Shown here piece after piece: positions 1 to 6,000 of a stretch of 64,000 nucleotides of DNA (the stretch's first letter is position 1; each line of letters starts with the position of its first letter). The DNA lies in NCBI RefSeq assembly GCF_029227855.1, contig NZ_CP074357.1. One strand, 5' to 3'. This stretch comes from Escherichia coli. Lineage in GTDB: Bacteria; Pseudomonadota; Gammaproteobacteria; Enterobacterales; Enterobacteriaceae. The position numbers were made by a program.

Positions 1-3000
1 GAAATGATAGTTATCTCATACGAACGATAGTAATGGAGTTTCTTAATGGGCGTTGATATCTGCTGGCGATTTCAAAGGGAAGAAAAGCCTGGTAAATGGA
101 TTAATTTATCAAGCAATTATAAAGGGGACCGATCATATCTCCACTTTGCCTGGCTCGGATTTGATGTAGATCGTGAAAGGGCGAGCACATCAGCAGTTTT
201 TATCCACGCATTACGCGGATTACCTGATGATATACCGTCCGAAGATGATGATTTATTCGGTGAACATTCATACTCATGGCTGACTTCGGAAGAAATTTTG
301 TCAGCCATACCACCCGATAACGCCGGAGAGGTGATCCAGGAATTTGTCGAAGAAGTAAAGCGTCTCCACGTGGAGAACGGCAGCGTCCGTTTCGTCTTTG
401 GATTTGAAGGGTAACCCGTAAGAAAGTAGCTATCTTACCCGGCTAGGTCTCCAATCTCTCAGATGCTCAAAGAGGGCCGGGCATGGTGCCCACACATCCC
501 CTACCATTCCGATTTGATATTCGTCTAATACACCCTTTAAAGAAAACAAGCAGACGGCAATGAGACGTCGGATTAGCGTCAGCAAATATGAGACGTCAGT
601 AGTCGATGTTTGTCCTGCGGAACGTGAATCTGTTTACAGGGGGTAAAGCCGTACCATCCATGAGGGCTCAGAGAGCCGGGGTCTCCTCCAGATCACTGGA
701 AGTTATTGACTCTGGCAGGCCTATCCCTATGACTTTTTCCCGGATGGCAAATTAAGATCGAACAGGGCCAAATTAGTACTCTTTTCTAAACGGAAATACT
801 GAATCACCCTGATATAACTGGTCTCTCACAAGACAGGAGATCATCAATGGAACGTGTAATATTTTCAGTAATCTTTTTTATGATGCTGGGCGTACCTTTT
901 TACCTTCTTTATAAAATTGCCCGGGACATTTTTGGGACCGCCGGTGCTGGTGAGCCTGCACAATTGCCTCAGGGCAAGCAAAGACGCTCAGGAGGCGCTG
1001 GTTCGGGTTCGATCTGGCAAGGACACCATCTACAGGGGAGCAGCCATTTGAACCCCCTCGGAGGTGATTGTAATGGTGAAAATAGCATAGCTGGTGGTTG
1101 TGATGGTGGCGGTGGAGGAGGAGGAGGAGGAGGTGGTGGTGGTGACTGATAGCCTGCAATTTTAACTATCAGGATGAAACCCATGTCCAGCAACCGGAAA
1201 AAGAATTCATATCAACCGAAAAGCCCTGCCTTAAAGTGAAGCGTATTAAACGTGAAGGATGCTGAATTAGAGGGTATCGGTTTTATACTGAAGCGTAACT
1301 GGAAGAAGGATCTGAAATTAACTATTACGGAAAAGTAACTTTCTGACTCACCACGTACGCCCCTCGGTTATGCCATACAGTTTGATACGAAAACAGATCA
1401 GTAAGTAGATTGCTATACGCCGGAGAGAAGTCTATTTTTCATACACCGAACCTGTTTGGCCTGCAATGGAAGCAGGTATAATAATCACATACAAAGGAGG
1501 GCATTATGAATAAATTTTTATACGTGCTTTTGGCCTGGATTGTTGTGCTTTTTATCGCCAACAAACTGCTCGCAAGACGTAAGCCCAAGACGGTTAAAAT
1601 CCTGGTACAGCGCAACGGGAAAGCCGCAGAGGTTGATGCTGTAGTGGTTCAGGGTTCAAAGAGAGCTAACAACAGTTCTGTTGCGGACAGCGACGCGGTA
1701 GATAGTTATTTTGAAATGAATCCTTACTCCCGCGAAAACCAGTCGAATGGTTGGGCTATGCTGGCCAGAGACGATGACCAGCTTAAATAATCAGTTGAGT
1801 GTGATGTGTAAAGCAGCTTAAAACTCTAAATGGACGAACAGGGGAGGTGACAAAGATGACAACCAATACAACAACGACCACCTACCGCTCAGAAGAAATC
1901 GTGCCGTTCAGACGGCCCAAAGGGGATCTGGATAGTCGGTATATGCCTCAGGTGTATGCAATGGTGCGGAACTGGGCAAGTAACCCTGCTCAATATGGTG
2001 AGGGTGTACTGGCCTCCTACCGCCAACCGGCAGTAAACCTTGCCTACCAGGTAAAAGGAACTCGTGTTGTTTTAATTCTGGTACCAGTAGAGTGCGAGCC
2101 ACCTGGAGTGATAATGACGGAAACAGTCCTGTGGCCGTCACTATCACTTGTAGAAGTCTTGCAGACCTTGCAGGAGGCCTGGCAAAATATTCCGGCGTTA
2201 AACCCCTGACGACTTCTGTCAATATCACCGGCTAGTGATTTACCTCTCTGCTGGTGGTCAGCCCGCCTAAGTTCAAATTATCTCTTTCTAAATTAGCCCG
2301 GATAAAAATCGGTCCCTCTAAAATAGCCTGCCCTGAGTAGGCTACGTCATACAAAGCGTTGGCCAGTCACCAGCTGGCTGGTGGCCATAATGCTCCACAG
2401 GATAAACCGTATCAGAACTACGCAAAGAAAAAGCCCCAACAATTTACCGATGGGGCCTTTTGCAGACATTTTACAGCCTTACCAATGATAGAGCGCTAAG
2501 GCTTCTGCTTAGTGAACAGACTTGCCCACAGATAATGGATAAAGTTGAGCAGAATGTATGTTACTCGTTGCTCGAATTTCATCGGGGCTTTGTACTTTGT
2601 CGTTATGTTGTGAATATGAGTAAGGTCCGTATAGAGCCCTGGCGACTTCCTTGTTGACTTCAACACCGAACAGATGTGCTGAACAGACTCCGGTGTGAAC
2701 AACCGTAGCCCTCGTCGTTGTTTGACTTTATGGATAAAATCGTCCATCCCCATACATAACCATTCCGGCTTGATGCCATCAAACTTACAACGTCCGTTTA
2801 TGATGACGACATTGATACATTCCAGTTCTCTAGCCTTAAGAGCAGACTGAATAGCCCTGATGTGCCCCTGGTTTTGCTTAAACGGGTTCTGCAACTTGAG
2901 GGTTCGGGACTGAGTCCATTTCCGCCAGTGGCTTTCCTCCAGAGTACCGTAGAGCTTGCCTACGTAGTTTTTCTGCTCTATGACGTATATACCATGTGGG

Positions 3001-6000
3001 GCTACGAGAATGTGATCAACCTGAGTAGTGCTATGAGCCGACAACTGAAAGGTGAGATCACTAAGTAGCCCCTGAGCTTCTTCAGGAAGCCCAGATTCAA
3101 TTGCCTTTGCAGTCCGCCGTTCCGCTATGGCAGAGGTCATAAAACCCAACAGACACAGCAACACGACGAAAATAAGGATAATGAAAGCTACCCCCGTAAT
3201 GCTCCACAGCAGATTGAAAGCATCCATGTTACCTCACAGAGGGGTAGCTGGTGGCATTAACAGATTCTACCAAGCGGGTAGTGGTACCGGTAAGGCTCTC
3301 AATATTTGAAGACAGGCTCATCAGCATGCCGAGTGCAGAACGGAGATTACGATGAGGCTCATTGTAGTTTTTGAACGTGTCAGTGGAGTACATTTTTGAA
3401 AGACGTGTACGGATCTCTACTGACGTAAGATCTCCATCCACCAGGCCGTACTTAACTGCCTGAGGTGTTGGCCATACACGGCCTGAATAGAGAGAAACAG
3501 CATCGGCATCATGACGCGAGAGAAGCTTTTTACCCCGTCCAAGTTCAACATCAGTTATAAATTTTTCATGCATCGTGTTCAGGATCTCCTTCTGCATGAA
3601 CTCCCTCGTTGAATCGGACAATGGGTGGAAGGGGTCAAGAGCATCTTTGAACTCACCGGCCGTAAGGGGCTCATTCTTGACGCCTACTGTGCTCATGATC
3701 TCTGACAGATTCCAGTGGTCCATACGCACACCGATAGAACCGATCAGGGCATTACTGTCGGCATAAATTGCATCAGCGGGCGATACCGCGTAATAGCATG
3801 CGGATGCGCATATGCCTTTCACACTAACGATGATTGGTTTATATGAGTCTGCGATATCAGAGAAAAAACGACCGGTACCGCTGGAGAGTACTTCGAGGGA
3901 GTTTTGCTTCGACCGTGCTTCATCGCCACGTTCTGTGCTCCCGGTTTTGTTACTCTTGTCAGCGGCTACAGATGAAAGAGAGCAACCGGCATCTGATACG
4001 CGTTCAATCTGTGGCTGGTGGTTTTTAAGCGCGTTTATCTGGCGGTAAATAATGATGGCGTCAGAGGGACCACCACCACCTGACTCTGCCTCGATAATAA
4101 CTGCTTTGGCATGGGGATTATTGTAAGCTTTGGCAAGAGCTGTTGCGATCACTGTTCCATCGCCCGTTTCCGAGCCGGTACCCATCTCGCCAGAAATCCG
4201 TATTACAGCTATATGGTCTTTCTTCCCTTCAGCGTCCTGCCATTGTTCGTAAAGATTGTAGAAAGAAAACCCTACAGCGGTCATGGCAATTAGCGACATA
4301 GCAACTTTTGCCGTGGTATGAATGCGAAACATCTTATAAAAACGGTCAGCGTTATCATTGAGCGATTCTTTGATATTTGTAGGGGACTTCCTTTTTTTAC
4401 TGCTTAACATCTGACCACCTTTACATGAGTTTTTGAAAGTTAGACCACAAGCGATTCAATGCAATTCCCAGTATCAATAAAGCGACTGGTGGGAAAAGTT
4501 GAGCGATATTGTTAAATAGTGACATATTCGGCATGACCAGGTAGACCATCGTTAAAGCACTGATCACCCAAAATGCTCGAAACCAAATACGATAAAACTG
4601 AACTGTAACCTTACCAAATACGTACCTCTTCAATTTCCACTGGTACATTCCATCTGCTAGCATGGCAAATAGATAGGGCAGAAAAACGATTAGCCACCCC
4701 AGGATTAAGTTCCACCGGAAAATGGACTGATAAAGTAAGAGGGGTATGTTTTTGGCCATAGTGTAATTAATAGAGGTAAATTTTTCAGCAACAATGTTAA
4801 TACCTCTGGCTGGTTTTTTGGTGTCAGGGATCAGAATAGTATTCAGATAGTCAATTAACTTATAGTCATGTACCAACCAATTTAAAGTCGCTTCACTATT
4901 TGCAATAACAGACTTCCAACGGTCATTTGATATGATGGACCGGCTTGCATTAACCTCCTGAGTAATCTGATATTTGAGCTCCTCAGTATTCTGGAAAGCC
5001 AGGCTGTAACCAAAATAAATGACCATGCCAAAAAAAAGCATTGTTCTGAGCACTGCTGCTCTGCTTGTATTATCCGCAGCCATTGCTTTCCCTCCATTCA
5101 CGAAAAAGAGCTAGCCTCTGATCGTGATTGCAATAGTTGTTACGCCACATCGTCGGGATACCCAGGAGCCAGTGGTACTGTTTAGGTATGATTTGGTCGA
5201 TGAGGCTTAACTCCGCCAGTTCTTTATGCTCTGCGCTTTTCCACTCGATCTGTCCCACATCAGGAACAAATACAGCGGTCCTTGCTTTTGCGGCCTGGCG
5301 GGAAAATTCTATAAAGTTGATGCCCCACGGCGTCCAGTATCTGTACTGCTCGTTTAGGCCGATGTTAAACACCGGCAGAGAAAGAGTTGAGTCGGCAAAA
5401 GCCGAAATCACATTTTTGCAGACTCTTGGACTATCTATTTTTTCCTGTTCGGTTTTGAGATGAGTCAGCAGTGCACGGTCAATAATGCTGTTAAAGGTGT
5501 TTGTATAAAGGCCATTAGGGTCAGGAAGCCGATCTATGGCAGTAATGATTTTAAATTTTAACCGAGAAAGAAAGGGAGAGTCCTCAATAGTAACTATATG
5601 ACTATGTGTTGTTTCTGGATGAATCTGGGGTTTGATGCGCTGTACTTGTTTAAAAGAGACACTACCTGGCAAATTAATGAATGCGCCCACCGTGCGTGTC
5701 AAATCGACGAAATAAGGCAAAAGATAACAACCAAGCATACGGGCATTCTTCTTTACAAGATCACACCGTTCGTCATTGTTATCGAAAGAAATACGGAAAC
5801 TAACGAATTTACGTTCAGGACCTTCGCTGGTGGTCAGCGATTGAATCCATTCATGGCATGAACCTTGTGGTACCGACCAGTAGCTGGTTTCACGGTCCCC
5901 AAAGGGATCAGTCGTGATCAACTCTCCCTTTAAAAGGAAAAGCTCAGACAGGGTATTTGCCATGGAGAATAGGGAATCGATATCGTTGCTCTGACAAAAT

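Follow-up and report, generated by a model that had tools for sequence, protein, structure and literature searches.

What are a peptidase and a nuclease doing at the end of an operon for conjugative DNA transfer? The question is raised by a 64,000-nucleotide stretch of Escherichia coli DNA (contig NZ_CP074357.1 of assembly GCF_029227855.1, called the window below), in which an S49-family peptidase gene and a gene for a NERD-domain protein follow each other on the strand that carries the relaxase gene traI and the coupling-protein gene traG. An earlier note on this stretch, made from sequence alone, suggested that the two genes form an accessory module for entry exclusion, anti-defence or defence. 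Our answer keeps the word accessory and drops the module: S49-NERD is not a conserved two-gene module but two separate add-ons. We consider it quite likely that the operon has here two accessory genes that are independent of each other and encode intact enzymes. The whole explanation, in which each gene also has a proposed role, is one that we favour only slightly, and the specific substrates that we name are tentative.

The pair is not a module because the S49 gene is tied to dtrJ without a NERD gene, and the NERD homologues are solitary. The gene dtrJ (traJ in H-type plasmids) adjoins the S49 gene upstream, and an S49 gene directly follows it, without NERD, in Motilimonas eburnea, in the Vibrio plasmid pVPS92-VEB and in two metagenomic contigs of MOBH plasmids. 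These non-IncHI proteins show 29-34% identity and share the operon layout of IncHI, and in three of the four loci traL-traE-traK-traB come immediately after the S49 gene. In a distance tree, the dtrJ-linked S49s cluster with the IncHI copies (bootstrap 56). S49 genes of other MOBH or F-type plasmids are placed differently: one follows traN in the mating-pair formation (Mpf) operon of Methylomonas, and single S49 genes occur in IncP-7-like, Allochromatium and Acinetobacter plasmids. IncC plasmids (L006 5935-7770, L024 6959-8794) and Vibrio owensii p2 (L007 7815-9665) carry a 26%-identical S49 gene with a DsbA-family gene directly behind it; both belong to a long operon of unknown proteins close to the replication/partition region. 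An S49 gene with no NERD gene beside it is present in seven or more further plasmid lineages (Motilimonas, Vibrio, Methylomonas, IncC, IncP-7-like, Allochromatium and two metagenomic).

The view from the NERD gene is similar. Scanning one genome per bacterial species with a NERD alignment gave 80 loci, and S49, traJ and traG stand beside NERD in two of them, both IncHI2. At the 78 non-IncHI loci, no real S49 gene lies that close as 6 kb or less, and one of them has a coupling-protein-like open reading frame (ORF) nearby. Clustering all ORFs that flank the NERD loci yielded no cross-lineage neighbour family, only an antisense-ORF artefact and lineage-specific neighbours, and the two solitary NERD contexts that we sampled are ordinary or unrelated chromosomal neighbourhoods. 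The IncP-7-like Pseudomonas plasmid p1160-VIM (L009 6404-8516) has a lone NERD gene in its tra region, between traU and traF.

Three loci have further features. The p1160-VIM gene directly follows a gene for an IscB RNA-guided endonuclease. Motilimonas eburnea has both its dtrJ-S49 operon and a homologue of the NERD protein with its transmembrane (TM) helix (31% identical), on separate contigs (L014 and L100), and there are no transfer genes within 6 kb of the latter. A chromosome contig of Pseudenterobacter timonensis (L013 10001-10729) carries an IncHI1-type NERD gene (62% identical) together with homologues of the two convergent genes that lie downstream in the window; this locus has no S49 gene and no tra genes, and its neighbours include an insertion sequence (IS) fragment and filamentous-haemagglutinin/PT-VENN (CdiA-like) toxin genes.

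In the simplest history, the S49 gene would have long accompanied the dtrJ end of the MOBH DNA-processing (Dtr) operon, and a solitary-type TM-NERD gene would have been added once, in the IncHI ancestor. Three points would be new: such an ancient dtrJ-S49 linkage across MOBH plasmids, the separate acquisition of a membrane NERD nuclease of solitary type by IncHI alone, and, in both genes, apparently intact active sites and strong constraint. The genes themselves were already known: they are catalogued and annotated in tables for the IncHI1 plasmid R27 and by the annotation pipeline PGAP, whose labels in the records are 'S49 family peptidase' and 'nuclease-related domain-containing protein'.

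These counts (no S49 at 78 non-IncHI NERD loci, and S49 without adjacent NERD in so many lineages) also sit poorly with a two-gene system for defence or abortive infection, with the S49 protein as sensor or activator and the NERD protein as effector. The two predicted catalytic domains would moreover be separated by the inner membrane, if the topology described below holds, and the Dtr operon both contains the pair and shares its regulation. The idea does draw on the 1-bp gap with its signs of translational coupling, on the fact that S49 and NERD are always together in IncHI plasmids, and on the occurrence of protease-plus-nuclease pairs in other immune systems. PADLOC gave partial, domain-level matches for the NERD protein and none for the S49 protein. 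We regard the earlier suggestion of defence, in the form of a two-gene system, as very improbable.

Within IncHI, the two genes look like any other part of the plasmid backbone. Checking H-type plasmids for conservation and synteny finds the pair in the same operon slot, as the final two genes of an eight-gene operon, in every IncHI-type locus examined: IncHI1 pHCM1, an IncHI1B-typed Klebsiella plasmid, pKOX26_3 and a pNDM-MAR-like hybrid plasmid. The operon and its S49-NERD end also occur in more distant lineages, with NERD identity of just 43-46%. Measured against the window proteins, identity in IncHI1 is 73% for S49, 63% for NERD, 83% for TraG, 82% for TraJ and 65% for TraI, and in the pNDM-MAR-like plasmid it is 46-48%, 31%, 46%, 46-48% and 32%, respectively. 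The divergence of S49 and NERD moves in step with that of TraG, TraJ and TraI. Ratios of nonsynonymous to synonymous substitution rates (dN/dS) were taken from closer plasmid pairs, with dS between IncHI2 and IncHI1 being saturated, and they are 0.065-0.085 for S49, 0.098-0.142 for NERD and 0.058-0.168 for the named tra genes. Among IncHI2 records of PLSDB, the region of the pair is found in 973 and traG in 959. Synteny, parallel divergence, dN/dS and PLSDB counts together argue that the S49 and NERD genes are vertically inherited backbone genes under purifying selection.

A few irregular copies exist. The E. coli IncHI2 plasmid NZ_CP119735.1 has an IS5-family insertion within its homologue of window positions 2300-4600 (191066-194431), which is a possible natural knockout. 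Two proteins from IncHI2-like contigs are fused calls: P0009 runs the S49 C-terminus into NERD residues 1-157, and P0025 fuses DtrJ with S49. The probable cause in both is a frameshift or stop-loss, or else a calling artefact enabled by the 1-bp and 10-bp gaps between these genes.

Are the proteins still enzymes? The earlier assignments of both domains pass against Pfam hidden Markov models (HMMs). For the peptidase, Peptidase_S49 (PF01343) scores 99.2 bits against a cut-off of 24.9 (E = 2.9e-28, residues 188-338). The more specific NCBIfam models are less favourable: TIGR00706 (SppA_dom) matches at E = 4e-35, yet its 121.2 bits fall below the equivalog cut-off of 155.45, and the cut-offs of the TIGR00705 SppA equivalog (96.1 vs 311.45) and of SohB (NF008745; 54.9 vs 259) are missed as well. 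Since it scores below these SppA and SohB equivalog cut-offs, we class the protein, by its profile matches, as an S49 peptidase of SppA type and not as SppA proper.

An alignment of 25 S49 sequences, extending to archaeal SppA and SohB, keeps both the predicted nucleophile, Ser203, and the predicted general base, Lys255, invariant, and the same is true of the oxyanion-region GG and of the motif GSIGV. Ser203 aligns with the catalytic-serine motif AASGG of Bacillus subtilis and E. coli SppA, and Lys255 with YKSAVEPF in the N-terminal domain of E. coli SppA. All dtrJ-linked copies have CASAC around the serine. We considered whether the S49-DsbA pairing of IncC plasmids might be the reason for the two cysteines in this motif and set the idea aside, because the IncC protein, like that of V. 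owensii p2, has GASGG there instead.

The AlphaFold2 (AF2) model of the peptidase has a predicted local distance difference test score (pLDDT) of 82, and Foldseek matches it to B. subtilis SppA (E = 3e-18, TM-score 0.84-0.88 when normalised to the target), E. coli SppA (4e-13) and ClpP (1e-7). A variable low-complexity insert of about 55 residues splits the S49 fold, and the model leaves part of it disordered, with pLDDT below 50 at residues 133-157. The insert is limited to IncHI-like copies, with a shorter version in Motilimonas. A phage head maturation protease (PHROG 53) was a further candidate identity, with a match of 5e-33; we rejected it given the N-terminal anchor, the transfer operon and the lack of phage genes nearby.

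The NERD domain (PF08378) scores 77.8 bits against a gathering threshold of 22.1 (residues 33-142). D71, E84 and K86, the putative catalytic core, are invariant in an alignment of 70 sequences, as are G90, W101, P115, Q118 and H122. The model of this protein (pLDDT 95.9) matches PD-(D/E)xK nucleases, i.e., it has a restriction-endonuclease-like fold. Its family is large: a word-indexed protein search gave IncHI-like relatives only, so we used an exhaustive HMMER search, which found approximately 4,700 relatives at E of 1e-3 or below. Many of the top-scoring ones are 200-260 aa long, with an alignment that starts at the N-terminal helix and runs to approximately residue 211. A phmmer search of PDB sequences with the NERD protein returned zero matches. 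With intact active sites, fitting folds and constraint, both proteins look like active enzymes, as far as alignments and models can tell.

The earlier note also had both proteins anchored in the membrane, and hydropathy and charge counts, which are heuristics, agree, strongly for NERD and more weakly for S49. The NERD helix has no Lys/Arg before it and three after it. By the positive-inside rule, these flank counts imply an N-out/C-in orientation, which would put the nuclease domain in the cytoplasm. The S49 N-terminus is rich in Lys/Arg and AF2 draws a long helix at residues 13-61; the hydrophobic segment within it is sub-threshold in the window copy and reaches 1.73 in the IncHI1 copy. The implied orientation is N-in/C-out, with a catalytic domain that would be periplasmic as in SppA.

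Positions of all features are collected in Table 1. The coordinates, minus strand and 1-bp spacing given earlier for the two genes are exact: the S49 stop codon TAA occupies 3231-3229, a single base follows at 3228, and the NERD ATG lies at 3227-3225. A GAGG Shine-Dalgarno sequence for NERD sits within the 3' end of the S49 gene, whose own ATG comes 10 bp past the traJ/dtrJ stop codon and is preceded by AGGTGG.

Table 1. Features of the transfer operon and its distal end, in window coordinates
Feature	Position	Strand	Basis or remark
MobI-like gene	12153-12692	-	Start of tight minus-strand gene run in window 1-12,700
245-aa unknown protein (R0121-like)	11419-12156	-	
MobH relaxase traI	8263-11415	-	NF041494, 256 bits
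Coupling protein traG/traD	6179-8263	-	SXT_TraD subfamily, 677 bits
370-aa unknown protein (R0118-like)	5070-6182	-	
traJ/dtrJ (DUF4400), adjoins S49 gene upstream	4421..5101	-	Pfam PF14348, synteny
S49 (SppA-type) Ser/Lys peptidase gene, 393 aa	3229..4410	-	ORF, Pfam PF01343; R27 R0116 homologue
S49 predicted membrane-anchor helix, residues ~35-55	4246..4308	-	Hydropathy, charge counts
S49 variable low-complexity insert, residues ~131-188	3847..4020	-	Alignment and pLDDT
Ser203 codon, predicted nucleophile (CASAC)	3802..3804	-	Invariant, 25 homologues
Lys255 codon, predicted general base (GEFKDALDP)	3646..3648	-	Invariant, 25 homologues
NERD (PD-(D/E)xK) nuclease gene, predicted membrane-anchored, 243 aa	2496..3227	-	R27 R0115 homologue
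NERD predicted transmembrane helix, residues 12-30	3138..3194	-	Kyte-Doolittle 3.1
NERD putative catalytic core D71 ... E84-x-K86 (QVDH...VIEQK)	2970..3017	-	70-sequence alignment
Terminator-like hairpin (AAAGGCCCCA / UGGGGCUUU) and U-run	2424..2460	-	Begins ~36 nt past NERD stop

Membership of the traI/traG operon, at its distal end, holds up on gene spacing, synteny, data for the R27 H operon and the hairpin that follows the NERD gene. This hairpin folds as RNA at -18.6 kcal/mol (z = -3.1) and is absent from the output of a consensus terminator scan, whose 3-8 nt loop limit its 12-nt loop exceeds. It is likely the operon end. Because of the hairpin with its U-run, the next genes (which lie on the opposite strand, convergent with the operon) and the R27 expression data, we place the pair at the operon-distal position. 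The operon also contains the 370-aa and 245-aa proteins, which are conserved members that diverge faster than TraG and TraJ and have no significant match in Pfam, NCBIfam, PADLOC or PHROG.

The plasmid itself is an IncHI2, R478-like resistance plasmid. Of the PLSDB records that match the region of the pair, 971 do so at 99-100% identity and a further two at 95-99%; one matching record that we inspected is typed IncHI2A with a MOBH relaxase and mating-pair type F, and the hosts over all matching records are chiefly Escherichia, Salmonella and Enterobacter. Beyond the operon, the window holds a (TGG)n array of about 18 copies (1092-1144) in a 100-aa ORF (847-1149, plus strand), to which it gives a poly-Gly tail. 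IncHI2 record annotation lists this ORF as a hypothetical protein, and antisense ORFs over the array have poly-Pro or poly-His runs.

R27 provides expression data for the homologues of both genes. In its tables, R0116 carries the label '(H), peptidase' and R0115 the label '(H)', which places both within the H operon of Tra1 (PMC7366339 supplement). In an R27 htdA mutant at 25 C, microarrays found R0115 derepressed 5.6-fold and R0116 4.7-fold, along with traJ (7.3), R0118 (8.6), traG (9.2) and traI (11.0), and the next gene, R0114, was not derepressed (PMC7366339 supplement). Because of this joint derepression, we consider S49 and NERD to be co-transcribed with the tra genes. In wild-type R27, the signals of R0115-R0118 are approximately 700-1500 at both 25 and 37 C, i.e., without thermoregulation, vs approximately 220-460 for traI/traG (PMC7366339 supplement). 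Since these signals are higher and not thermoregulated, they hint that a constitutive promoter lies inside the operon, upstream of R0118. The sole promoter-like match in window 2496-6182 is a weak consensus hit within the S49 gene (4284-4255, minus strand). R0121 is among the most thermoregulated tra genes of R27 (8.3-fold).

If the genes are transcribed with the transfer genes, might they be required parts of H-type conjugation, e.g., a peptidase that matures Tra proteins and a nuclease that processes transfer DNA? Operon membership, co-regulation and constraint equal to that on traG/traJ are all consistent with this, and so is the recurrence of S49 beside dtrJ or in Mpf operons of many MOBH plasmids. 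The earlier note called neither gene a standard conjugation component, which is right in that neither has a named Tra role and understates how often S49 recurs in MOBH Dtr operons. Against a required role, NERD is absent from non-IncHI MOBH operons, and neither protein is a named essential Tra function: for Tra1, reviews of R27 name only TraH, TraI, TraG, TraJ and TrhR/Y/F/H/G. The literature that we searched assigns no function to R0115 or R0116, S49 is missing from the SXT gene table, and S49 and NERD go unmentioned both there and in the tables of Rts1 deletions, as they do in preprints on IncC exclusion and CtiC. A required role for both genes is, in our judgement, quite unlikely. Lawley et al. 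(2002) are reported to have found 9 of the 14 Tra1 ORFs essential, a number that the nine genes just named would use up, so that R0115 and R0116 would be non-essential.

We therefore return to two independent accessory genes and ask what each might do. In the explanation that we propose, both would be transcribed with the relaxase, coupling-protein and TraJ genes upon transfer derepression; the topology, the substrates and the benefit to the plasmid are the inferred parts. The S49 protein would be a single-domain SppA-type peptidase, held on the inner membrane by its N-terminal helix and catalysing in the periplasm. Its most likely task would be to degrade or trim membrane-embedded or periplasmic peptides that arise from assembly of the transfer apparatus, for example leader peptides of pilin and of other exported Tra proteins. 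Alternatively, it could act in the processing of one particular periplasmic component of the transfer machinery, in the vicinity of DtrJ and the coupling protein. Either way, it would serve housekeeping or quality control, aiding transfer or donor fitness without being strictly required. The NERD protein would be a nuclease on the cytoplasmic face of the inner membrane, where relaxosome, coupling protein and incoming nucleic acids meet, and it would most likely cut nucleic acid at the membrane, with foreign or phage nucleic acid on its way in, or else transfer DNA, as possible targets.

A sharper version of the NERD role is that this protein alone is a plasmid guard, cleaving nucleic acid that enters via the pilus or transfer apparatus (candidate targets are pilus-specific RNA or single-stranded DNA (ssDNA) phages and competing-plasmid DNA), with S49 as unrelated housekeeping. 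Phages such as pilH-alpha and Hgal1 use H pili as their receptors, and the NERD gene is co-regulated with the tra genes, i.e., active when the cell is exposed to pilus phages. ZwsA, an RNA endonuclease with a NERD domain, sets a precedent, being reported to protect Pseudomonas aeruginosa from pilus-dependent RNA phages (bioRxiv 10.64898/2026.04.06.716636), although it is a large multidomain protein of other architecture. NERD is likewise the N-terminal domain of PglW, MAD6 and MkoA, with matches to the window protein that are partial and confined to the NERD region (24 bits for PglW, 21 for MkoA and 41 against a cut-off of 460 for MAD6); no PADLOC system is matched at full length, and no defence partner genes lie near the NERD gene. 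An intact catalytic triad under purifying selection and the NERD gene inside the IncP-7-like tra region fit a guard. The solitary TM-NERD genes do not: their neighbours are ordinary or varied with no recurrent partner, as judged from two samples plus clustering and without a specific search for defence genes, and SmdA, the best-studied TM-NERD protein, acts in cell division and not in immunity (PMC12272431). On balance, a NERD guard acting alone seems unlikely.

The guard role is nevertheless attractive, because of the ZwsA precedent and because expression coincides with piliation. One can extend it into a version in which NERD cuts RNA or ssDNA entering by the H pilus or channel, offsetting the phage risk of the plasmid's own pili, and in which S49 is linked to it functionally within IncHI only. 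To this we give a small probability.

The remaining suggestions of the earlier note were entry exclusion and anti-defence. We weighed them as entry or surface exclusion and as anti-defence acting early in the recipient, and what speaks for them is that two predicted membrane proteins sit on a conjugative plasmid. The first is already taken in IncHI1, where entry exclusion is assigned to EexA/EexB, encoded in the Z operon of Tra2 and thus in another region, apart from our genes. For the second, we found no feature of the kind: anti-defence genes are typically small, soluble, leading-region proteins, whereas S49 and NERD are HtdA-controlled enzymes, predicted to be membrane-anchored, at the end of the relaxase operon. 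Pfam, NCBIfam, PADLOC and PHROG gave no family-level match to either function, and we give these two roles hardly any weight.

Several points weigh against our preferred explanation of two independent accessory genes with these roles. Bootstrap support for the deep branches of the S49 tree is poor (56 and below), and the 1-bp spacing plus the retention of both genes in all IncHI lineages examined would also fit a functional link confined to IncHI. The hydrophobic segment of the window S49 copy is weak. Signal-peptide clearing is argued by analogy with SppA, for a protein below the NCBIfam SppA cut-offs, and the operon partners of S49 are Dtr genes and not pilin genes, which weakens the leader-peptide idea. 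R0115 and R0116 are probably dispensable in laboratory matings, a statement that draws on the count attributed to Lawley et al. 2002 plus our own reasoning. More generally, the activity, substrate and topology of both proteins are predictions from sequences and models.

Why does the locus matter? IncHI plasmids rank among the main vehicles of multidrug, colistin (mcr) and carbapenem resistance, and here are two genes as constrained as the relaxase and coupling-protein genes, without an assigned function. The companionship of S49 with DtrJ points to an overlooked, probably envelope-side, helper of MOBH transfer. The NERD gene is an entry point to an almost unstudied family, whose thousands of members are solitary NERD proteins tethered to the membrane. 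An effect of either gene on transfer efficiency, on donor fitness or on susceptibility to phages would make that gene a lever on the spread of IncHI plasmids; should both lack such an effect, their strong conservation would itself call for an explanation.

Comparison with known systems helps to delimit both proteins. The NERD defence proteins PglW (BREX), MAD6 (MADS), MkoA (Mokosh) and ZwsA share the NERD PD-(D/E)xK module with the window protein and are otherwise large multidomain kinases, helicases or RNA-binding proteins. The window protein, in contrast, is a predicted TM helix plus NERD plus a short helical tail, and its scores against the defence families are 20-41 vs 460-990 bits. Closer in architecture is Staphylococcus aureus SmdA, in which an N-terminal TM helix is followed by a NERD domain in the cytoplasm (PMC12272431); we found no other protein of this kind that has been studied experimentally. 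SmdA is chromosomal and essential, and it acts in the division and morphology of a Gram-positive coccus; the likeness drawn here is one of architecture.

For the peptidase, a close known system is B. subtilis SppA (PDB 3RST/4KWB; 36K-type), which likewise has an N-terminal anchor, one S49 domain, and Ser and Lys in the same protein. The two match in sequence (E = 6e-15, approximately 21% identity) and in fold (E of about 1e-18). Unlike B. subtilis SppA, the window protein has the insert of approximately 55 residues, CASAC in place of AASGG and a 40-residue C-terminal tail, and it is plasmid-borne, inside a DNA-transfer operon. The dtrJ-S49 loci of other MOBH plasmids share with the window the layout mobI-X-traI-traD-(X)-dtrJ-S49 and the motifs CASAC and GxxKxxxDP; their proteins are 310-365 aa long, three of the four lack the long insert, and no NERD gene follows. 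The closest parallel for both genes together is R27, where R0116 and R0115 occupy the same slot after traJ and whose IncHI1 subgroup, represented by the pHCM1 proteins compared above, differs from the IncHI2 subgroup of the window plasmid.

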